Under the pieces are notes generated by a model. It worked only from the letters and a program-made list of their open reading frames with translations. It was not told where the DNA came from and did no database searches. DNA of 64,000 nt from Aplysia californica (lineage: Eukaryota): assembly GCF_000002075.1 (NCBI RefSeq), contig NW_004797279.1, positions 1,721,962 through 1,785,961 on the forward strand. Reading direction: 5' to 3'. Position numbers and translations under genes: made by a program. Each line of letters opens with the position of its first letter. Position 1 is the first letter of the stretch. Positions 5,954-25,300 of the stretch are shown in pieces.

Positions 5954-6813
5954 AGGCCGGTCCCAGAGTGGCTCTGTAGGTCTGACCTGTAGCTTGCCTG
6001 GCTCGCACCGTGCTAATTAATGTATACATTATCGTGTGCTTAAGTAACGTCGCTGTGTCGTCTGTTTTTTGTCAGCTGAGCTGCGCGATGAGTCAGACGT
6101 GCTATTCAACAGTGTTGTAAAAATGGCGGACATGTGTCGCCTCGCTTCGTGTTTATTTCCGACTGAAACTCTTCACAGATCATCAAAATCAACAAGAAGT
6201 AAGTATTATTAGGTGCTTTACTATTAAATATCGATGCTAGCATCAACACTTGGCCACAAAATCACCCAGAAATGCACTTTATCATACTTTGAAACTTCGA
6301 ATCGAGAGGTTGACCTAGTTTCGACTGTTGTCGTAGGCCTAGGCCTAGGCCTAGATCTAGGTGTGCTTCTCTAGATTCTAGATCTAGATCCCGTGACCCC
6401 GAGCCGAACCTTACTGTGCATTCAGACAAAAGATCTGCATCCATCTACGTCCTTCATTCAGACAAATGCATTGAAACCAATGTAAACTATCGCCACGCGC
6501 AGCTGCAAGTGTGTTTGTGTGTGTGGGGGGGAGAGGGGGTTGCACTTGGCTCAAGACGTAAAGAAGAGTTGTCCCGTCTTGGTATAATTGGTCTTGGATT
6601 ACACAGTACTTAAATATAGCAAGGCAGACCCATCAGTTGCACACCTAGCCTACACACGTCAACACACAGTGCGGCTGTGCTGAGACGCAGCGAGTGTGCC
6701 TCGTGCTCGCTGAGAAACAGGCGCCAACCCACAGTGCGGCTGTGCTGACACGCACACGGTGTGCGCCAGGCGAGCTACAGGTCAGACCTACAGAGCCACT
6801 CTGGGACCGGCCT
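5954..6813. mobile_element. MITE with ~58-bp TIRs (AGGCCGGTCCCAGAGTGGCTCTGTAGGTCTGACCTGTAGC...), TA flanks; superfamily uncertain
   Basis: First ~40 bp of the TIR are a perfect inverted match; CpG-rich interior. Confidence 0.9.
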
Positions 6814-8443: not shown

Positions 8444-9272
8444 CAGTCCGTGCCGGCTATAAGCACACCGCCTTAAGCACGTTTCGGACTCAAGCACGCT
8501 AAACGGCTCTTACCGAATTTTTGCTATATAAATTACACGCCTATAAGCACGGTAACTTCGGCTTCAAGCACGCTTCATTTACAAGACAGTCAATATTATG
8601 ATGACCCATCGAAGTTCGAACACAGTTTACACTGCAGCAGTGGAGTGTGTCAAGAGAAACACAAAGAACGCAAGTGATGGACACGCACACTCACACGGGC
8701 GGAAAGGAAGGCAGAGAGATGCACACAGCCGTGCGCACGGACATAGGATCTAGATCTAGCCTAGGCCTAGGGCAAAGCTACACACGACCCCCCCCAAAAA
8801 AATACAAAGAGAGTCAGGGAGACGAGAAAGGGAGGCTGGCTGAGATTTTACATTTGACCCTCGCTATCCATTAATCTTTATTGTGTATCACGCGCGAGGT
8901 GGGATGAAGGCGGTGGTATGAGTGGCACAGCAGGCAGTGGTACGCACAGGCAGTGTGTTACAGTAGGCCTAGTGTGCTGTATCGTGACTGGCCGTCTAAA
9001 TTAAGTTTTCATTTCCCATTCGACCACAAAACAAAAACAAACAAGCGAACAAAAACAAACAAGCGAACAAAAACTACCATGGCGGGTGTCTAAATAACAG
9101 TGCACACTTTTGCGGGACCGCTATAGGCCTACTTACAAACAAAGGGAAATAGCACGGGGAATTTTCTATATGAAAATCTCTGGATTGTGTCTACTTCGCA
9201 CTTAAGCACGCTTCGGCTTTAAGCACGCTTAAGCTTTCTCCCGATGACCGTGCTTAAAGCCTGCATGGACTG
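8444..9272 (+). mobile_element. MITE family C copy 1 (pogo/Tigger-type)
   Basis: TIR CAGTCC(G/A)TGC(C/A)GGCT..AAGCAC, TA flanks, subterminal AAGCACG repeats; closely similar inverted copy at 34496-35301. Confidence 0.92.
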
Positions 9273-9984
9273 TACTTCAATTGTAGTTGGGGCAATGTTC
9301 CTGGACTATAGCTTAATTTGCGACGGAAATGAAGTTGATATTTGTGTTCAGCGCTTCAATATTTAGATCTAGTGGAAAATGGACAACTGGCAGCTAGATT
9401 CTAGATCTTATAGATCTAGATGTGAGACAGGAGGGAAAGTAAAAAGAACACAGAGACTATTTGAAACGCTGCATTCTGATTAGCTCCCATGCTATTTGAA
9501 ACGGAGCCATCATTTCTACATAATACTGTAGTTCTGCCTGAATTGTGGAGGCTTTCTCAGTTTCTTGATAAACCTCCTAGGATTTGACTCCTTTTTATGA
9601 CGTTGTCTTTTAATTCCGATCAATATTGGCATTAGTCTAGATCTCGATCTAGATCTAACAATATTTTGTTTCTGACATGGTTTGCACAAAAGTAGCCTTG
9701 TTCATCTCTCATAATCATAATCATAAAATTGAGTTTGACCAAGTAGATCTAAGTCAAAAGACGCTTGGATAATAATATAATAACAAGACGGTGAAACTCG
9801 GTAAGCACTATTTCCTGTCCGCAGTGTCGTCATACAATACCTAAAAATATTATCACTGCGTGCACATTATATTTTGCCATCACATTCACGAATGACGTCG
9901 CCTGATCTAGAATTCTAGATATCTAGATCTAGATCTAGACTCTAGACATCTAGACCTAGATCAAGATCTAGAGATCTCAGGCTA

Positions 9985-10395
9985 TTTTTTTTTGGTAAGT
10001 GTTTTACGGCGCTCGCAACTGCATTAAGGTAATGAGCGCGCAGGACACATTAAACTTTTGAATTTTGCCCAGGTGGTGGCCGAAGCCTACTCTTACGCTT
10101 ACCACCAAGTGGGACCTTTAACATGCGCAACTTGCACATACGGGCCCTCCGAGATTTTTCGCCCTTGTCTGAGAAGGCTAGAGGTGTAGATCTTTCCTAC
10201 CAGAAGATCAGGGGTGCGCCTGAAAGACAGCAGTCGAGGAACCAAGGATATCACTGAATATCAGTAGAAAGGCTGCAGAAAGATCAGAAGAAGCCCAGAG
10301 GAGGGGTCAAAGGGGGTGAGGGGTGAGGCGTGAGGGGTGGGGCAGAAAGTGGAGACGAAAGCAGATGACAGAAGACAAGAGTAGGAAAAAAGATT
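9985..10395 (-). mobile_element. SINE family 2 copy (head missing, A-tail at 9985-9993)
   Basis: Colinear with 5428-5860. Confidence 0.8.
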
Positions 10396-11033
10396 AGGCC
10401 GAAAAGATCCGTAATCAAATTACTGACTGAGAATGGAGAAAATCACAACTTACCCGTTTTGCTGCTTGGCTTCCACCAACACTCCAGCGTCTCAATGCCT
10501 CATAGATTCTAGATCTACGAACATCTCATAGGTGACTTGGTTATAATCTATGATAAATTTTTTTGTGTCCCAATTAGTCACACGATTCGGACTGTGGTCT
10601 TGAACAAACTATAACAATAATAATTAGGCCTATGTGACCTTTCACCAGGTCAGTTTCCATATCCGTCTTTCTAGTAAGTTGTTTAATTGTCCAAACTCCA
10701 CAATCTTAAACAAAATCATTCTGACTTTTGTAAGCGTAACAACATTCAAAAATACATTTTGAAAATGAAGTTTCAAATATCTTAATTCAAAAAGTACATA
10801 GTACACAGCATGAGCTCTAAAAAAATAATATTCAAGCTTGATGTGAAAAATAATTTTTGAGTCTCAGTTGTTTTTGAAATACATTGGTATTTAGTATTTT
10901 TAGCAAGGGAAGCCACTCTGTAAATAAATTTTCAACTCTACAACTCTCTCTACAATGTGTGGATGTTCGTCGTGGTGTGTTAAGTGTAGTGTACGTCGTG
11001 CCAAGGTCTGGCCAAGACTTTGCTTCAAACTTT

Positions 11034-11284
11034 GGTAAGATTGAAGAATACCGGACCAGCGGACTGACTTTGCCTATGTCCCAACCTTAGGAATTCATAA
11101 ATTTCCCGTTTTTAATATTAATATCTCTCAATGGACCGGTCTAGATTCTAGATCTAGATCTATTCTTTAAAATTTTGTCCCCCTGAACCCCCCCTCTCCC
11201 CTCCTCCACCCCAACCACCCGCCCCACCAACCCCGCTTTCTCGCGCAATAATGTATGAGTGGTCCGGTATTCTTCAATCTTCCC
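11034..11284. mobile_element. Small MITE (~250 bp)
   Basis: 22-bp perfect IR AAGATTGAAGAATACCGGACCA (11037-11058 / 11260-11281), GG..CC termini. Confidence 0.75.
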
Positions 11285-11314
11285 ATGGAAACATACATGT
11301 TTAAGCCATTGCCT

Positions 11315-11413
11315 CTAGAGTAGAGTCTAGATCTAGATATAGATATAGATCTAGATTCTAGATTAGATCTAGACTTAGATCTAGATCTAGATCTAGATCT
11401 AGATTTAGATCTA
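11315..11413. repeat. Array of TA-GA(N0-2)TC-TA palindromic units ((TAGATC)n-like); similar arrays at 9908-9970 and 6334-6390
   Basis: Direct reading; see findings. Confidence 0.95.
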
Positions 11414-11488
11414 AAAATCTACATTTCGTCTCGTCTCATTTATGTGTTTTGGCTTTGGTGTGAATTGATATTGATGAATGAATTTTTC

Positions 11489-11662
11489 GGGAGGACTTCC
11501 GTAACGAGCGACCACTGCCACTATGAGACAGAGCAGAATTGAGGGCTTGGGCTAGGGGTAGGGGTAAGGGTAGGGTTAGGGTTAGGATTAGGGTTAGGTC
11601 TAGATCTAGGCCTCTTCTTTATTGTATTTGATGGGGTGGTCGCTCGTTACGTAAGTCCTTCC
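11489..11662. mobile_element. Small MITE containing telomere-like (TTAGGG)n repeats
   Basis: 27-bp imperfect TIR GGGAGGACTTCCGTAACGAGCGACCAC; AATTTTT direct repeat on both flanks; GGGTTA-like array at 11551-11598. Confidence 0.8.
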
Positions 11663-13203: not shown

Positions 13204-13325
13204 ATGGTGTTTTTTACTTGCAATGCCTGTAGCGAAGCTCTGAAAAAGAATCAAGTTGAAAAACATACATACAAATGTAGGCAGTGTCAGTCTTTGAGCT
13301 GTGTTGACTGTGGGAAAGATTTCTG
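13204..13325 (+). CDS. LYAR: LYAR coding exon 1 (MVFFTCNAC...CGKDF, phase 2 donor GTAAGG)
   Basis: ATG at 13204 in AAGATGG context; CxxC..H..C..CxxC zinc ligands; donor TG|GTAAG at 13326. Confidence 0.95.
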
Positions 13326-16300
13326 GTAAGGCCTTTTGCTATTTTTTTTTCATGTTCTTGACAACTGTAGGTTTTTGCACAGCTCATTGTAATGGGTTTT
13401 TGTGCCTTCGATCTCTTGAAACAGGTAGACTACAGGGCAAGTGTCCAAATATCACAATTAAGAATGGATATAATATATGACCAAAAATTTGGTACAAAGC
13501 TTGTTTTTAAGGAAATATGCCCTTACTAAGTAACTGAGGATATGATGCTAAATAGCACACCCTTGCAAGGTATTTTCTTTACTCAGTCTTGAAAATGTTA
13601 CAGCAATCCAGTTTTTCAAAATATATATGCATGTGTAGTCAGTATTGTGCTTTTTAAAAAACTTTAGAAACTGAATGTTGTTTTTTTTTACTTTAAAGTT
13701 GAGTAGATAATCATGCAACACTTTCACAGGAAAGCTGAAGGAAAAAAAGTGTAAATACTGTAATTAGGATTGTCAGGCTTGTTCCGGTATGGCGTATTAG
13801 ATAACATGGATGCTGGAGAAAGCATGCCCAGAACCTTGTAGCTGAAACTGAACTAGGTTTGTACCCACATGAGGAACTGGTTGCTTTACCCCCCACACAA
13901 CCATAGAAGTCTACATCATGCAATATGACCTTTAGCACCGATCTCGTTCGTCGTGGACTGCAAGCGTGCTAATGAACCAGCTGTCAGGAAGTCAGCAGCA
14001 GAGGCTACCATTCGATTGCTCCCCCTGCCTGATGTTGAATTCTGGACTGACGGTTCAGCGAAACACGGTACCGAGTATGGAGGCAGCAGAATACTGATCA
14101 AGACCTGTGATTCAGAACTCGACCATTGTGTAACCGCGGGCTGGTATTGTTCCAGCTACAGGGCTATGCTTGTAGCTCTCGACACAGCGCCGGGCATGCT
14201 TGATTCACTACATACAGCAGGCAGTCTTTAGAACAGTGTATGCCTTCATGTATACACTGATTCCAGATCAGCAGTCATACGCCTCTCATACGGCCCCACC
14301 AACCAATCGGAAAAGTGGCGTGCTCTATCTGGCAGCGTCTGCACACCCTCTGTAATCGCTCGGAATGTTCCATCCACTTACAGTGGATTCCAGGCCACGC
14401 TGGACTAGCTGGGAACGAGGAAGTTGACAGCATCGCTAAAGAAGCAACAGCGCTTACCCAGACTGACATGCCAATAGATTTTTCAACAGCTGAAACCTTC
14501 ATCCACCGGTCGACCTGCGCAAAGTGAAAAAGAGGCGAAACCCAAACTGCCGCTTGCCCAGCCGCCATCATACCAGCTTGAGGCCTCGCTCAGACGGCAG
14601 GACCGCCAGCTTCTCTCCCAAATGACAACTGGTGGAAAATCGCCCAAACTGAGATCATATCTCCACAAAATTGCACCAGCGGACTTCCCAGATCCGCCCT
14701 GTCGAACCTGCAAGGAGGAGGACGAGACTATAGACCATGTGTTCCTGAAATGTCCTGCCAACTATCATGCCAGAACACGTCTGCTGGGACATTTCAGTGA
14801 CCCACGCTCACCACTTTTCAAGGGCCCCCGAGCAAGTGTTGAGTTCCTGGGTGCTGTCGGCATTGCTGACCTTTTATGACGCCACAGTGCCAGAAGAGAG
14901 AGAGAGAGAATGCTGATTCAGCGTATGGTCATGCAAATCTTCACCTGCCAGGTTCTGGGGACCTGGGCTCAGAAAATTGAATTTGTCAGAGAACACGTGA
15001 GTCCCAAGCCCCAGTGTAGGTTTAGAGCAAAAAGGTAAACCATTTTATTAACATGGTGATCTTCTTGTGACAGGTACAGGAGACTGGCGTCGGTAGTCTA
15101 ATGGTTAGGCTACCAGACTCGTAATTGTGAGATTGCGAGTTCGGGGGTTCGAGCCTCAGCTCGGTCTGACATTGTGTCCTTGGGAAAGGTATTTTGCACG
15201 AATTTCCTACTTTGCTTGGTCCTTTCGGAGATGGACGTTAAACTCTGAGGTCCCGCCTCTTAAATGACCTAATAGTGTTGATAGGACCCTTAATAAACTC
15301 ATACCATCTTTGTGGTAAAGGAGAAGTGCAGAGAGCAGCACAAACCCTTGTGTACATTGTCTTCATAGACCTCGCCAAAGCATTTGATCATGTCAGTTGC
15401 GAAGAACATTGAATCTCTGGAGTTACTTGGATGTCTGCTGTCCCTCCTACGGATCTTTTAATCATTTTACATTTGTAATGAAGGCAGAGTCATCTTTAGA
15501 AAATCCTCGGAGGAGTTTGAGACTGAGATAAGAGCAGAATCAAGCAAGGACATGACCTTGCTCTTTGGCGCTCCCTCTACGGAATTTATTTCTTATTTCT
15601 TGCTTCTGCTCTGACATGCTTTCTTTTTCTAGAGTGACATGAGCTTTATTCCAGCTCCTATGGTGGACTCTACAACACTGAATGACTGAAGACAAAGATG
15701 AAGATCAATGTGTTATCTCATCAGAAAACTACCATTGCTGCAGGACATACAGCAGTTGTGGCCCACACAGAGAAAGAACGACTTTTTCTTCTTCTCGTTC
15801 ATCTCTCAATGGATGTCCCAGTTAGTTGAGTTAGGAAGAATTTAAAAAGTCGGATTTTTGAAAGTTCAGCCGAATGCTGGCAATTTGACTCGACTGTCAG
15901 TAAGAAAAAGACACCATGCTTTCTATCAAGGAGAAGCTACAGAACTGTTAGAAGTTCCTGTTTCAATTGAAAAGTGAGAATTGTTTATCTGCAAAAATGT
16001 GCAAAACCTGCTGGCTAACGTTAAGAATGAAAATAAAATGCTGGTCATTGGTATTCACTACATGTTTTATATTTCCAGGGGCTCTGAGTACTTAACACAC
16101 ACAAAGTGCATAACAGAAGATGAGAAGTATTGTGGTAAAGGCTTTGTGGCCAAGGTCAACAAAGGAGAAGTGAAACAAGAACAGTGGATTGAGGTACTGT
16201 AATGCATGTGCTGAGATCTTTAGAAATATCTTTTTTTATTCAGTTGAGTGTGCCTAACTCGTAATTGAGAGAGAGAGACGGAGAGAGTTTTTTGTAAATG

Positions 16301-19300
16301 TTCTGGATATATTTGGGTCAGATAAAGGAAGGGTTGCATGGGGAGGAGGAGGGTGGCGAGAGAACACATGATAGATGAGATAAGAGTAATGATGTGCTGA
16401 TCAGGTCGGGAGGAGTTGTCTCTCATAATTATGATAATTTCACTGATACTGATTCGGGTTTGGCAGCCATGGATTTCCTGAAACTGAAATTACTTGTCCA
16501 GTCTTAGAAAAGTGACTCTGATGCCAGTCTGTCTTCCAAGTCTGCAAGCCACACACTCTTCCCAAGCCTCATATGCTTCTCTAACCTTTTGATCCCCATC
16601 TCAGTTAACAACTTGTCTCTGCTGTCCATGTCTGTCTCATTACTAATTACCCTGTAATGACCCTTTTAACGGATCAAAGTCAACTGGCATTACACAAGGC
16701 CTATTGTGTACTGTCAATCTAGAGCTTATCATTAATGTTTCTTGTCTAAGGCAGGAATAATAGTCTAATCTTTTACTTTTTCTGTTTGTGTTGTTAAAAT
16801 GGTTTTGAAGATGGGACTGTATTAACTTCTTCATATTGGCCTTGATTTTGAAATGAACCCCTTGAGGCCAGCCATTTTGATCAAGTTTGGGAAAACCTCT
16901 GTCATTTTACTTTTCTAAAGTTTTAATGTAAAGAAAGAAACAGCAAACTGTTTTTCATGTAATACATTTTGAATAATTGTGTTTATCCCTTACTTTAAAA
17001 AAAACTTTTGAAAAGGAGTATCACAGAGAAGTTTGGGTATCACAAAAGTATTTTGTTTATGCCATTGCTGTACTTTGATTCTACTAACTACAATGTATCA
17101 AATTGAGTCTTTATTATAGTCTAGACCCAGAAATAGAAAATTAAATGTGTACATCTAGCTATGTTTGTCCATGGTAAGTCTACAAGAATCATCTAGACCT
17201 ACAAAATGGATCCAGATGGTAAATCTGACTTAGATCTATTTATAGTAAACTAGTCTAGATCTCGCAAACTGAACCTTGTTGTATTCTGTAAAAACGATAA
17301 AAAGGGAGCAAGGTTCAATAAAAAATTAATTAAAGGGCGATTTCCCATCCCGTCAGGAATGGTTTGGATCAATAAAACATACATTGGCGGCATCGAAACA
17401 CATGCGGATAACTTGAGAACAACAGATGTACGCCATTGGCTGATATTTATAGTAACAGCCATCTTGTTTGACGTCATTGAGGGATTTCCACTTTGTTGTC
17501 GTTCACAGTGGCAACACGACCGCAAAGCACTATTGCAGTATTTTTAAAGCCTGTAGCCTACAGTGGCGTGGTGGTGGAGTGGTTAGTGCGCTTGTCTCCA
17601 AAGCAGAAAGTCCAGGTTCGAGCCTCGGTTCGGCGACAGATTTTTTTTCCCCCTCCGGCCCACCCACCTATAAAGGGTACATGACTTCGAGTTGGGGAAA
17701 TACAGGACTAATTTTAACCCAAAAATTTTTTTCTAAAGAAATATGTAAGATAACTGAAAAAGCATGTGATGTCGTGACTTTGATGGATTTAAAAAACGTA
17801 CAAAAAATTGGTCATTTTCCTACAATGGCCGCCATTACCATGGCAACCGCTAGATTCATCCACAAAATAGATGATTGCAAATTACTCACAATACGACCTT
17901 TAATATATGAAGTCAGGTACCCATTACAGGTTGGTGGGCAGGAGGGGGCGGAAAAAAATAATCCGTTGCCGAACCGAGGCTTGAACCTGGACTTTCTGCT
18001 TTGGAGACAAGCACACTAACCACTCCGCCACCACGCCACTGTAGGCTATAGGCTTTAAAAATACTGCAGTAGTGCTTTGCGGTCGTGTTGCCACCGTGAA
18101 CGACAACAAAGTGGGAATCCCTCAATGACGTCAAACAAGATGGCTGTTACTATAAATATCGGCCAAAGGCGTACATCTGTCGTTCTCAAGTTATCCGCAT
18201 GTTATGGAAACATAAGTTGAGTGTCAGACTGAGATAGAATGTCTGTGCTTTGGAAATAGGAAACAGAGATTTCTTAATTTTAATTTTGGTCTTAAGTGAC
18301 TTAAAACTGTTCTGTCCAAGTGAAAAAAATTTCTTCGTTTTGCATTTTTATTTTTATTTTTCCCCTTCAGAAAGTCCAAGGAGCAATAGAGAAAGCTTCA
18401 TCAAATCCAAAACTGAAAGGCCTGCTCGAAAGACTCACAGATTATCCTAACATTCCCCGGAAAAAAGCAAAATTTGAGGTATTCATGTATAATTAGAAAT
18501 TGCCGGCTTATTGCATTGTATTGCATTAATAATTTGATGAATGTCTTAGTTCAGATGACTTTGTAAGAAATGATATGCAGTTAAAATTGTCTGAGACGGT
18601 CACCCAATGGTGAGGAGAAAAATGGTTGTCTTAGACATACATGTGAATGTCTTGGGAAGTGTCATAATATATAGAAGAAACGAAAGGGCCGGAATGGGAT
18701 GTGGATGTTTGTATAGGTGATTGTCTTGAACAGATGGCCATTAAAACAGGTATTTTAATCTTAGTCATAATAAAAGCATGTCTGAGTTTGTTTGAAGCTG
18801 ATACTGTAGTCTCTGCCTAAATGCATGCCATACAAAAGCATGCTCCGCTCAAACGCACGCTTTTGTCATGACGTTTGAAAAAACTAGCCATATAATTTAG
18901 ATGTACAAATGTACAGTCACTCCCTCTACTTTACTTTTCTTTTCCGATCCAACGGCCATCTGGGTTCTAGCCCTTTGTACTGTCGAAATGACAAAGAATT
19001 TACAGGTTTGTATCAGCTGTGTTTTATCGCTGTATAAAGCAGACCTGCCACTCATCCCGATTTAATCGGGATATCCCGATTTTGTGCCCCAAATCTCAAG
19101 CATCCCGATTTTCCCGATTTCGATCGCCAGTATCCTGATTTTTCATGGTTGCGTCTGTTGCGTCCGATTCATAGAAAAAAATATAAAAAGTTCTGCAATC
19201 TCTTTTGCTTGGAAACACCGATTGGACTTTTTATCTGCAGGAACTTGGAACTCTATTTTCTAAAGCATCTTTGCCGAATCTAGGTCTAGTAGATGACTAA

Positions 19301-22300
19301 CACACGCTATTTAAACTAAAATCGACCTAGTTTCAAACGCTCACTCGCATCACATGACATGACTTCGTACGTGTGGTGAGTAGCACGTGTGTCAGGGACC
19401 GTCGGTTGTCGGGGTCAACAAAGTTAATTCACACAGGTTGTGTTGGTCGAGGTGTTTTTCGGGACTTAACCAGTGTGGACGGCCGGGGGGAGGGGGTGGG
19501 GGTATTGTTTTGACACGTGGGCTTAAAGTGCGTGCCGTGATACAGATACTAATTAAGGGGAAAGGAATAAGAAAAAAAATGAACAACCTTGGCGCGATCT
19601 TTTTTTCGATGTGATGGAAGTCAAACGTTAAAACACGGGTGTTTTGCGTGGATGATTAGAGTTACGTGTCAGCTATTTTCAAGACTACGAGTGTTTCAGC
19701 ATCACTGGGACCTTCGCTCCCCCAGTCTATCCAATTTCAACTCGAGTACATATATGCTGTCAAACTTTAGCCTTGCATACTTGCCTCTTAAAGGGGAACC
19801 AGGACAACCCCTTCCCTAGTGCCCTTTATGACTGAATTTTCGTTGATCCCAATTTTTTTCACCGGATCCTGATTTTTTAACTCAGAAATCCTGATTTTTA
19901 GATTTCATAGAGTGGCAGGTCTGTATAAAGTATTTCCGATATCTGGGGAGGCAGTTAGGTTGGTACTACACAGGTTGCTAAGTGCACGACAGGAAAAGAG
20001 ATGGTGTGATACTGTTTCATCCTGGCAGTTACACAACAGACAGTCAAGTGGGATATCCTTGCGGATCCTATTTAGGTAGGAATTCAGATGGATGTGCTGT
20101 GTTTGCAGGTGAAAGATAGGGACTTGTTCTCTTCTAATCAGGGAGTTTAGTTAGTCTTTGAGTTAGAAGCTGTCACTCTCTCGAAACGCACGCTCCGATT
20201 CGCGAAACACGCCGACAGGTAAAGCTTGACAAAGGGAAATTTTCACTACAACCTGCACTGCTTGTATACGACAACCCTAGAAAACCGGATATTTGGTGAG
20301 AATGCCTCTCACGCCGAATGAAGAGATTGATGGACAGAGTTTTCACACCCAGCTTTCCACAGACAGTACTTAAGTCTAGGACTGGTTGGTGAAATGTTGG
20401 GGGGTTGGGGGACTGAAATGTTTTTTTATTGGTCACTCGAAATGCATCTTTGAGAGAAGGTTTCTGACTGGTGTTTTGGTGACTGCATGTAATGTTTAGT
20501 TAGATCTAGGCCTATGATGCGCAACACGCAAGAATGCTGTAAAACACTAGATAGGCCTCTATAAGATTAAAGATTAGTCAAGTAAGCCTAATCAGCTGCG
20601 CTCGAAGAACCTATAACGTACTTGTTCAACGAATCACAGAGAAATGTTTCTCTGAATGTAGAGATCTATGATCATGGTTCTGATGTCATTCATGATTATA
20701 AATTACGGTCAGGGGTGGTCGCTTGGAAAGCCATGTCGTTGGGCTGTCGTCTCTTTGACTATCACCAACAGTTTCTTCTTATCTTTTTAGGCTATCTGTT
20801 CCCGACATTTTATGGTGCATATCATTGCATTGAGGCTGTCCTTCTGCACCCCCCCCCCCCATGTCGTCACATTATTGGCCCAAAGTGACCCCCACCCCAA
20901 AGGGAGGTCACTAGAATATCAAGAAATTGAGATGACTGCATCCCTTCCTCCCTTTGCACTGTTTCATGTAAACATACACTCCATATAAACACACGCTAAA
21001 GAGCCTTCCCGAGCACTGTGCGTTTAGGCGGAGACTACTGTAGTCTTGAAGAATTGTAGTGTTATCCTTTTCAGACTGGAGGATTTTTAAAGTTACTCTC
21101 CTATACATCCTTTAGTTTGTTGTTTGTTTTTTGGTTCCTTTTTATCATTGATTATGTGAATGAAGGCAATGGAGTATTGACACTGAACATTTAAGATTGC
21201 CCTTTGTTCTTCAAGTAAACTCGCACAAAAAAGTTAAGGAACAAAAATTCAAAGCAAGATAACTGAAAAACTGTAGAACCGAATTTATTCATTTTTTCAA
21301 AAAAGATGCTTTCGACTCTCTAGTTTACGAGTGTATAATTTCAGATTTCAACAACAAAGAGAAATGCATGTAAAATTAGTTTAAATTACACTGGTCGCAT
21401 TTCAAGAGTCTGAGCAGCCGTAGTTCTTCATAAACATTGTCAATAGTGGGTGTAGCCACCCCGATTGGTCAAACACTCAGTACAGCGTAGACGCATGGAC
21501 AGGACATGCATTCGGAGATCTTGTTGCGGTAGGTTCTGCCACTCCTGGACGAGGTAGCCCAAGAGTTGTTGAACGTTTTGTGCAGGAGGGTGGTTATCCC
21601 TAATCCGCCGGTCAATGTGATCCCAGATGTTCTCGATTGGGTTCAAATCCGGACTACAAGCTGGCCAGTCCATGCGGGTGACACTTCGCTGCTGCAAGTC
21701 CCTCACGATGCGTGCGCGATGTAGTGTGGCGTTGTCGTCCTGCAGAACAGCGTGGGGTCCAATCTGCTGCAGGAGAGGAACAGCAACGGGAAGCAGGATT
21801 TCGTCCCTGTACCTTGCAGTGGTCAAATTGCCCTGTATATGGTACAGGGGGGTCCTGTGGTGAGCCGAGAAGCCTCCTCACAACAGAACGGACCCTCCAC
21901 CGTAGGGCGCCACCTGCTGGATGCACTCAGGGTGGAACCGCTCTATTCGGCGCTTCCAGACGTGGGCTCGCCTGTCTGGGTGCAGCAAGTTGAATCTGGA
22001 TTCGTCCGAGAAGACAACCTGACGTCGTGTCCATGGAAATGTCGAGCAGACCACGCCAAGCGAGCTGCTCTGTGGGCCGGCGTGTGCCTTGGGCGTCTGG
22101 CAGGAACACAAGAAGCGAACCTGGCTCTACGGAGACGGTTCCTCACCGTCTCCTCGCTCAAGTGGACATTGGCTGTCCCCCGTAGTTGGCCCCTGATGCG
22201 GTTTGCAGTGGTGGTTCGTGACGTCACGGCCTGTCTGGCGATGAACCGATCGATCCTGTCCTTGGTCAAACGGGGCCGCCCTTGTCGAGGCCTGTCCTGG

Positions 22301-25300
22301 ACCCTTCCTGTCGCTCGCCATCGTTCTTGCAGCCTCCATATGAGTGACGGGGACACCCCAAGTTGATGTGCAACGACTTGGAACGTGGTTCCATCTTGGA
22401 GCCAGGCAAGAGCGCGTCCTCTGTCGACATCAGGCTGCAAGCGTCGTTGGACCATCGTGTTGTAATGAAACATGGCTGAAAAACGCTGGCTTATAAAGGG
22501 TTGCAAGTGAGCGATATTAACAACCAAGACATCTGTTTAGCACGTGCCATGCTCAGTTTTAGCCACCAGCCCCAATGCCAATGTTGCAGAGGCAGAGAAA
22601 TTTAGCCCATTTTTCATGCTTTTCAGCTGTGTTTGGGCATGCCCTGCCTCGTCGTTGTGAAGCTCGTGCGGGTAAATTTGCTGTACAGGCAAACTGTGTC
22701 AAGTCGTCAGTGCATGTGTCAAGTTTGGTTGACTGAGCTTTACGGGATAGCGAGATATTGAAGTTTAAATTTGACAGGTGGAAACACAAGTTGTTCCTTA
22801 ACTTTTTTGTGCGAGTTTATTTAGCAGTTGGTTGATAAAAACAATACGTATCATGTAATCTGTTGTTTGCTGGGTGCTTTGATATTGTTGCTATAAATGA
22901 CTGAATTAACGTTTTCTGTTCTTGTCTATTACATCTTTGTTTAACTGAAGTTTTATGTCTGTTGCCTAGTACTAAAATACCATTCAAACTATGTGTGACA
23001 TTCTCTTCAGAATTTCTTAAAGAACAGTCTTCGAGTGCTTAGCCCTGCCCTAATTTCACAAGTGTGGGACCTCCTGATGACAGCAGCAAACAATGTGAGT
23101 TTTACAAAGTCAAAGGGTTAGAAAGTTCTTTCAGCATACTATTTAGTGGTAAAATTTGTCTCTCAGTTCTCTTGGAAAGATAAGAAAATAGTTTTTTTTC
23201 TTACCGTTTATTGATACCAGTAGTGAGTACGTTGATGATGATAGTGCTGAGTTACTGGTACTGAAAAGGGGCTTACTTGATGCTGTGGAGAGTGAGGAGA
23301 GGTTGCAGACAAGTAAAAGTATGAGTTTTCCTTGGTGTCTGTACTAAGCTTGTTCATTAGCTTATACCATCTGTATTTAATTTCCATGGAATTGAACATA
23401 GCTGATGTTGGCACTTTCCTATCACAACAGACCATAACGTTTATGCTGGATTGGTCTTCTTTGATTTGTCCTTTGATGAAAGTGCTTTTGTTTAACTTGG
23501 CTAGGCCTATCCATGTCAGAAAATGGCTGTTGTAATGAGTTCAACGAAAGAATCAATGTTCTACTCTGTGTTACATTGTCTTCTTCCTCTTTGATGTTAC
23601 CTTCAAGCTTTTTCTGCTGATCATTACTCTTTCATCTTTAGGCAGGTTTTAACTTCTCTCTCCTATTGGTCTTGAGGCCATAAATCACATGATGTCGTGC
23701 AAACATCGATGTTCTGTGCCTTGTGGTCATCTCAATCTCACTGCCAACTGTGTTTGAACCAAATGAGCTGACACTTTTCTGCATCTTATTTCATTTTTAA
23801 AAAGTGTGACTATTGACCTAGAAAGATCTAGGATCTCAGCAATGTCATGAATTTTGAGCCTCCTGTCATCACGAATGAGTTTCCTAATGATTTCAGCATT
23901 TTTTCTGTGTTGGCAAACAGATGACAACCCTCTAATTTTCCCATCGTGCAGATTTGTATGCCCCTCTTTAGATAAATTGCACCAATGTTAGACCTCACCA
24001 TAAATACTTTCAAGTTCTGTCTCAGTTTCTGTGGCAATTTCCTTTTTCACGTAGAAACTGAATAACATTTCTGTTGTCTTCTTTTGACGAATTTTATGTA
24101 GTGGTGTGTATTAAATAGTTGCATTCATTTTGTTCATTTTAATGGTGGGCCCAAATGGAGTATTCCCTGAACTACTAAAATCTTTTTTCAGAATTGAAAA
24201 ATATCGGAGTTATTTGAATTTTGATATAGTCATTTTCCTGTTATTTCTGGGACAGCTCTCTTTTTTAAAAGTAAATATTTTCATTTCATTAACTTACACT
24301 AAAACTGTTTTTCATCTGCTGAAAGAAAATTAAACTGCTTTGATGTTTATTTGTCATTACAGGCTGCAGAAAGCAAACATAATGTACCATCCGCTCAGTC
24401 TGCTCAAACTAATGGCGAGACCAAAAGCAATGTTGACCCTTCCAAAACCAGTGATGGCCACATGGAGGTGGAAAATGAAAATGAGGAAACAGCGAAACTG
24501 AATAAAAGAGAGAAAAAGGAAGAACGTCAGAAGAAAAATAAAAAGGAGAAGAAGGATAAAGAAGTTCCAGAAAGCAATGGAGATGTTGAAAAAGTTAAGA
24601 AAAAGAAAAAACGAAAACATGAAGAAGTTCTGGAAGATCAGAGTAACGTGTCTGAGGAGCCTGTGTCTGGGAAGAAAAGGAAGAGGAATGAAGAGCCAGC
24701 AGAGGAGGATCCCGGCAGTGAGCTGAGCCCAATTGAGAAAAAGAAGAAAAAAAAGAAACATGACAGTTCTCAAGGTAATGATGCTTTGAAAGGTGCAGTA
24801 GAATATGGTGGGATGTTATAAACAGTATTTATGCTGGGGGACACTGTCCGGTGCCCCAGTTGTGAGGGAATTCAGGTTCACAATGGTCATCAAGCAATGC
24901 TAGTGACACAGCTTTTAGGTATGTGGTCTCTGATATGTGTCCTTGTGGAAGTGCTCAAGAGAAGGCCTTGCCATTAAGTAGACAGTAAGGGTGTTAGTAC
25001 ATGACAATGACAACAAACTACTGGTCTCATGGCAAGAAGTTAGTTCTGGTCATCTACAACTGTTTATGAATGTTTCTTAAACCTGAACATGCTCGTCCTC
25101 TCACTCTCTTTGGGTCAATTGTGGCAAGTGAATTGATCATTGAAAATTAAAAAAACAACAACTTTGTATTCTGGATTATTGTATTCTTAGAATGTATGTT
25201 AGGTGATGCTCCTATGTAAACAAGATTTCCGGACAGGTGAATAAATGTAATCTTTTCTTTTTTACTTCTCATCTTACCATTTCAGTATGTTCATGAGTGG

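Follow-up and report, generated by a model that had tools for sequence, protein, structure and literature searches.

Transposases of the Tc1/mariner/pogo superfamily cleave the non-transferred strand a few bases in from the end of the element; when the break is joined after excision, the first or last 2-4 nucleotides (nt) of the element stay behind between two TAs (PMC6943129). Footprints with TA duplicated around 2-4 terminal nt are described for Sleeping Beauty (PMC6943129), ZB (PMC7913693), Passer (PMC9976928) and Tc1 (PMC13148408). For Passer, a pogo element, the footprint measures 0-4 bp (PMC9976928), and in C. elegans empty Tc1 sites are produced by end-joining mainly in the soma (PMC13148408). 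The present report concerns a 64,000-nt stretch of one contig (NW_004797279.1) of the 927-Mb genome of Aplysia californica, hereafter the window, which contains fields of short units of the form TA-GA..TC-TA, both single and in arrays with shared TAs. These units are small insertions at TA and are probably excision scars of a Fot-like pogo element, each of which would rebuild the preferred C-TA-G target so that repeated visits would stack arrays. They differ from the Tc1/mariner/pogo footprints above in being germline-fixed at about 130 per Mb above chance, in having GA and GG ends rather than CA, and in forming stacked arrays. Because empty Tc1 sites arise mainly in the soma, fixed germline scars at such a scale are notable.

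The likeness of the element to the Fot and Fot-like pogo elements of Gao et al. 2020 (PMC7386202) lies in DDE_1 with DD35D, HTH_psq plus HTH_Tnp_Tc5 and the TA duplication, an assignment made from these features. Table S1 of that paper lists protist Fot-like elements with GAGTA, GAGTG, GAGTC and GGG ends and TA duplications (the GGG rows in part); in the available portion of the table there is no animal Fot-like element among 29 GAG matches and no entry under the genus of the nearest named relatives of the transposase. Linheiro and Bergman 2008 (PMC2577343) describe how terminal nt of the P element rebuild a preferred target motif and so make hotspots; their table also has IS630, with a TA duplication inside CTAG. 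In the P element the inserted ends restore the target, whereas here the post-excision scar would do so and the product would be a growing hexamer array. Stowaway in Triticeae (PMC1925063) has entered and left a single TA repeatedly, an element being present beside a footprint, but at one locus and with few events, in contrast to the thousands of arrays genome-wide reported here. A literature search, with most subscription journals and Repbase/Dfam outside its reach, returned nothing on genome-wide TAGATCTA scars or on footprint-built arrays. The element itself may already be catalogued elsewhere; the novelty lies in the unusual scale and the proposed self-targeting loop, footprints themselves being familiar.

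The first-pass annotation had predicted a TA-flanked element with GA..TC ends. Such an element was found, a low-copy Fot-like pogo of the form TA-GAGT...ACTC-TA located inside arrays. Eight loci with long open reading frames (ORFs) among the hits to the DDE_1 profile (PF03184) were examined. Three of them (L358, L359 and L362) combine a long ORF with GAGT..ACTC terminal inverted repeats (TIRs) that are about 24 nt long and bordered by TAs; the L359 element is flanked at either end by TAGATCTA. HTH_psq, HTH_Tnp_Tc5 and PHD domains are present in L358 and L359, DD35D spacing was found in L359 and L360, and the related L356 is DD36D. In the related group formed by L356 and L357, GAGT ends lie within or beside arrays and the boundaries are less clear. 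The GAGT-ended elements, 4.1-4.5 kb long and with a C-terminal PHD finger, differ in these two features from the listed Fot-like elements, as they do in their animal host, their CTAG preference and their insertion into their own scars. The nearest named relatives of one transposase in this genome are gastropod. No solved structure matched the transposase in a structure comparison.

Termini were searched genome-wide with a pattern that did not specify TA. This gave 30 termini (reversed control, 0), which is a lower bound because the pattern misses copies with C ten bases upstream and copies with mismatched ends. All 30 are preceded by TA, and 28 by C-TA (background 17%). Fourteen abut TAGATC directly (background 0.22%, p about 1e-29); after one segmental duplicate and one shared flank are collapsed, the hand count is 13 of 27. 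A further 8 of the 30 come after GAATC, GAC, GTC or GCTC, again by hand count, and around five such loci 12.3 kb of flanking DNA contains 12 unit clusters where 2 would be expected. This placement of GA-ended elements inside arrays supports the idea, also put forward at first pass, that each scar creates a new target. One site in a repeated unit was seen in three states with matching flanks: empty (AATAC-TA-GTCTAGG), with two GATC units, and occupied by the GAGT element. The fillers match the ends of resident TA-flanked elements, with GATC, GAGTC and GACTC corresponding to GAGT..ACTC, GGCC to GGG..CCC and CATG to CAG..CTG. A source element for the GA..TC scars can now be named, and the earlier interpretation is supported in substance. 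As a separate observation, the GAGT element of L362 and G000 C325:90250-98681 carries a second left end about 3.9 kb from the first; it is the outer of these that agrees with the empty site, so an 8.4-kb composite appears to have moved.

The units arise as insertions at lone TAs. Two MITEs (miniature inverted-repeat transposable elements) of the window were compared with their other copies. MITE1 is itself a TA element with CA..TG ends and served as the chief substrate for polarising. Relative to 29 other MITE1 copies, TAGGCCTA replaced a lone TA once, and TACATGTA did so at two sites. In MITE2 copies TA became TAGGCTA and TAGCCTA, and the single TAGATCTA seed acquired non-identical neighbours in the window copy and in others. 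Window position 9364 has TAGATCTA where three paralogues have a lone TA, a non-tandem gain of six bases. Insertions were also called from an all-against-all comparison of 1.56 Mb, with 349 kb covered by at least three homologues; those of 4-12 nt were retained and those that had been picked out by the search patterns used in this analysis were dropped, leaving 209 unselected insertions. Non-tandem insertions make up 23 of the 27 canonical-class cases among these (GA..TC 7, GG..CC 10, CA..TG 6). Only four are tandem-compatible, in a count that under-samples in-array events, so the objection that polarised indels are almost all exact tandem duplications fails.

The excess over background expected at first pass is present genome-wide. 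In an unselected sample of 60 stretches of 10 kb, taken at fixed positions of large contigs (503 kb non-N), filler octamers exceed an order-2 Markov expectation 14.6-fold for GGCC, 10.5-fold for GATC and 4.8-fold for CATG; TACCGGTA, with filler CCGG, is enriched 5.1-fold. GATC octamers stand about 133 per Mb above chance, which extrapolates to about 100,000 in the genome, and one array pattern has 7,253 matches genome-wide. Counts in the window, against those expected under Markov orders 1-3, are 33 against 0.9-1.4 for TAGATCTA, 18 against 0.5-0.7 for TAGGCCTA and 5 against 1.1-1.9 for TACATGTA. The observed/expected ratio of CpG gives no clear support for hypomethylated hotspots, being 0.68 vs 0.63 in GATC bins (p=0.12) and opposite in direction in GGCC bins (0.55 vs 0.64, p=0.012).

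Each filler has its own flanks. Among isolated scars the base after GATC is G on 35% of sides, against 17% in the background (207 sites, p 2e-18), C follows GGCC on 46% (130 sites) and T follows CATG on 48% (112 sites). Neighbours of the same class were found on 12 of 148 sides for GATC, 0 of 80 for GGCC and 1 of 124 for CATG. In nine listed copies of MITE2 the lone seed has become an array of 2-9 units, and in one of these copies GAATC alternates with GATTC. Expanded copies lie in denser loci, at 1.9 vs 1.25 clusters/kb (10 vs 24 loci, 3 skipped, p=0.046). The MITE2 loci are themselves scar-rich (1.25 clusters/kb in the L032-L060 flanks, 0.16 in random DNA), so unrelated transposons share these hotspots.

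In the proposed mechanism, the transposase would cut about 2 nt inside each end and germline end-joining would leave TA-GA-TC-TA. A 3-nt end would give GAG-TC or GA-CTC, that is GAGTC or GACTC, and repair may add a central T or A (GATTC, GAATC, GATATC). In a GA..TC scar the left TA would be followed by G and the right TA preceded by C, and a second visit would make the interior TA a full CTAG. Since the TAs of a scar rebuild CTAG, the preferred site of the element, arrays would feed themselves. GGCC and CATG scars may come from GG- and CA-ended relatives with flanks G-TA-C and A/G-TA-T/C; such scars leave the flanks favoured by their own class unrestored and so would rarely stack. Some perfect units may be products of slippage, and passenger copying inside MITEs would account for many units.

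Several observations weigh against this reading. Extant termini are 93% C-TA, and isolated scars have G on just 35% of sides. The approximately 100,000 extrapolated excess octamers compare with 30 matched termini, a ratio above 1000:1; part of this excess is passenger copying and the rest must be long turnover. Derived status was called for just 17 of 155 TAGATCTA in covered repeats, so most of these are inherited passengers. The in-array events on which slippage would act are those the caller under-samples, and some calls rest on two homologues. Neither an excision event nor a segregating allele was seen, and for none of the units was variation between individuals observed. The GG-ended element described below has five termini preceded by A, A, A, T and G, with no G-TA-C bias of the kind seen in GGCC scars. 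At CTAG sites a 2-bp duplication of TA and a 4-bp duplication of CTAG look alike, and the lone empty site is compatible with both. The centres of the units are also awkward. Invariant ends with variable centres had been judged hard to obtain by slippage alone. Most of the variable centres are not the third base of the element found, as GAATC/GATTC (130 seen, 14.3 expected) and GATATC (26, 2.0) outnumber GACTC/GAGTC (40, 12.7) and GAGCTC (1, 2.0). Judged from these counts, the common centres would fit GAT..ATC ends better than the GAG ends found.

These centres give the strongest of the rival explanations, a possible though doubtful one, in which the majority of GA..TC scars derive from another, unfound family that ends in GAT..ATC and the GAGT family is a minor contributor with a common target. 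GATTC/GAATC, GATATC and GAT/ATC would be the 3+2, 3+3 and 3+0 products of such ends, and ends were examined for just 28 of 123 DDE_1, 50 of 150 listed DDE_3 and 21 of 105 DDE_Tnp_4 hits. No TA-GAT family was found in up to 1.39 Mb, however, and the CA class has a like pattern: CAATG/CATTG is seen 42 times against 22.8 expected, while CACTG/CAGTG is not enriched (20 vs 20.5) despite abundant CAG-ended elements. Because of this parallel, and because GATATC is seen 26 times vs 2 for GAATTC, the central base is read as a T added in repair, and the GATTC, GAATC and GATATC centres are probably repair-made. The centres also bear on slippage. Single scars may be real footprints while the arrays are mainly microsatellites grown by slippage from one seed, with elements landing later, which is held to be unlikely. 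Indeed, of about 70 fillers flanked on both sides by GATC units 30 are perfect GATC, more than any other interior unit, the MITE1 gain in the window and three of nine listed MITE2 expansions are perfect copies, and slippage events inside arrays would be missed by the caller. Slippage predicts duplications of A, T, G or C anywhere in the hexamer, but in 109 one-base-longer units beside a GATC unit the extra base is central in 99 (GAATC 42, GATTC 41, GACTC 10, GAGTC 6), the remainder including three G/C duplications and four duplications in TA; 83 central A/T thus stand against 7 made elsewhere by duplication, and the 16 GACTC or GAGTC units cannot be duplications. Nor does slippage account for asymmetric units that alternate in both orientations in one array, for GGCC and CATG seeds that nearly never expand (0/80 and 1/124), or for the denser surroundings of expanded MITE2 copies (1.9 vs 1.25 clusters/kb, p=0.046).

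Two further explanations carry much less weight. If the element duplicated CTAG (4 bp) and ended in AGT..ACT, its scars would be CTAG-AT-CTAG, as the 28 of 30 termini at C-TA-G and the single empty site would allow; five of seven non-tandem GA..TC events at TAs outside CTAG, two termini with A or T before TA, and the TA duplications listed for GAG-ended Fot-like elements (PMC7386202, in part) make this very unlikely. Hardly credible at all is an origin with no transposon, in which the units result from generic break repair by templated insertion or are selected protein-binding sites. Small insertions of other kinds are certainly common: 141 of 165 non-tandem insertions fall outside the GA..TC, GG..CC and CA..TG classes, and at one TA site of a short interspersed element (SINE), with 194 insertions genome-wide, most of the 100 listed are AT-rich or locally templated and two are TAGATCTA or TAGACTCTA (one GATC, one GACTC), so that scars are a minority of all small insertions. 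Against such an origin, the same filler appears in unrelated contexts without a local template, each filler has its own flank preference, elements with matching ends adjoin units about 200-fold over background, and the units accumulate within dispersed repeats.

A GG..CC-ended TA element, likewise expected at first pass, was found at L349, L351 and L352 as TA-GGG...CCC-TA with HTH_psq and DDE_1. This pogo family is about 3 kb long with a 596-aa reading frame, L351 being DD35D by hand count, and its ends make it a candidate maker of the GGCC scars. MITE2, which we take to be Merlin-like, was ruled out as a GG-ended TA element by a target duplication of 8 bp, not TA. An ISL2EU element with apparent AATA-GAC..ATC-TATT ends, which would even predict GACATC, was rejected on the evidence of two empty paralogues, by which the duplication is AT and the ends are AG..CT; AT duplication is described for ISL2EU (PMC4482050). 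A young ISL2EU family (L156:3706-8329 in G000 C1092, L157 and L158) has a THAP-HTH-DDE_Tnp_4 ORF and a convergent YqaJ ORF in copies 99% alike; its AT duplication lies mostly in AATT, its ends are AG..CT and not the usual GG, and it has 18 termini genome-wide. Tc1-type DDE_3 loci (50 of 150 listed hits) have resolvable ends AAC, CAC, TAC, CAG or TAG, never GA. A Tc1-like element of the window (21213-22822) has ends beginning AAC after TA, its abundant relatives beginning AAC, CAC or TAC. Among the PHIS/Harbinger loci examined (21 of 105), one copy ends in GAG and has a TTA duplication, and another ends in GGC with TTA at a single side. Neither a TA-GA nor a TA-GG MITE family emerged from de novo searches for TIRs and boundaries covering up to 1.39 Mb, a result consistent with the low copy number of the source element. 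Trap patterns at the SINE TA and after arrays revealed no element start among the 100 matches listed; for the after-array search the reversed control is invalid because the reversed pattern matches arrays too.

Coordinates of the arrays, units and host repeats in the window are shown in Table 1. The parse first given for 9908-9952 (GAATTC, GATATC, GATC, GATC, GACTC and GACATC with shared TAs) is borne out, and the array at 9908-9958 is likely a stack of excision scars, a history read from the array itself. The longer array described at first pass is present, although it also holds units not of the GA..TC form (GA, GAG, GAT, GACT, GATT); the GAG and GAGTC fillers that open it correspond to the first three bases of the GAGT-ended element. 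The field of mixed palindromes proposed for 9360-11620 holds 27 GA..TC units but just one TAGGCCTA and no TACATGTA. In a comparison of four runs that was swamped by repeats, one contig of reads from run X8 differs from the window by six gap letters in 10346-11058, and X6 and X5 do not; this is possibly a segregating unit.

Table 1. Arrays, units, host repeats and coding exon in the window (position 1 is its first letter)
Feature	Position	Strand	Basis or remark
Mixed arrays: three GGCC and one GATC, then GATTC and GATC	6334..6386		sequence
Host MITE1, TA-CAGT...ACTG-TA ends	8444..9272		30 copies aligned
Mixed GATC/GCC/GGCC run inside MITE1	8747..8769		one extra GATCTA in window copy, tandem-ambiguous
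Single TA-GATC-TA within repeat 9313-9395	9364..9371		six bases absent from 3 paralogues
GATTC and GATC units, scattered	9395..9418		sequence
Array of TA-separated GA..TC units, then GACC unit	9908..9958		sequence
Very high-copy interspersed repeat, second polarising substrate	9986..10370		putatively SINE-like
Two-unit array GATTC, GATC in single-copy DNA	10503..10517		sequence
Sole TAGGCCTA within 9360-11620	10625..10632		sequence
Host MITE2, GG..CC ends, one seed TAGATCTA	11034..11284		8-bp target duplication in other copies
Three units GATTC, GATC, GATC; one unit in most other copies of MITE2	11142..11162		alignment of 30 copies
Longest array; starts TA-GAG-TA-GAGTC-TA, then GATC and variants	11316..11413		sequence
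TIR element holding the GATC unit at 11601..11608	11489-11662		sequence
GATC unit inside TIR element 11489-11662	11601..11608		sequence
Coding exon with initial ATG, LYAR-like gene	13204..13326	+	zf-LYAR; arrays 1.8-3.3 kb upstream of exon

The region from 8.0 to 11.7 kb is a repeat mosaic of the CA..TG MITE1, the very high-copy repeat, the GG-ended MITE2 and the small TIR element, within a CpG-undepleted block upstream of the LYAR-like coding exon. When 150 ORFs of the window (the LYAR exon and 149 of the 252 listed) were scanned against Pfam, no minus-strand gene was found upstream. A splice-donor-like site lies on the minus strand at 10446-10460 in single-copy DNA and may mark a divergent transcript that runs opposite to the LYAR-like gene. 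The small TIR element contains a degenerate (TTAGGG)n tract at 11549-11598. A second MITE1 copy at 34824 has TACATGTA at a site common to three other copies, a scar inherited by the subfamily. Further footprint-like insertions in MITE1 copies L012, L017, L023, L027 and L029 have non-TA duplicated edges of 3-5 nt, suggesting scars of other transposon superfamilies. A 249-nt inverted repeat, 95% identical with a 305-nt spacer, lies at 17400-18202 and is a foldback-type element.

The scars now have a named, testable candidate maker, a natural transposase with a CTAG bias. The findings provide a concrete route by which tandem repeats could be born and lengthened by transposition and not by slippage, and explain a strongly over-represented octamer that motif finders could take for a binding site. 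They suggest that canonical end-joining scars have been fixed in this germline, and that cut-and-paste activity may far exceed what surviving copies indicate, with about 100,000 excess scars to tens of matched termini. On balance, and by a modest margin of confidence, a low-copy, high-turnover Fot-like transposon would be writing a palindromic hexamer satellite across the genome by positive feedback, its scar being also the site that it prefers to enter; on that reading the scars, roughly 100,000 in number, and the thousands of arrays would amount to an accumulated record of transposition and end-joining in the germline, in which centre bases added by repair would reflect polymerase action.

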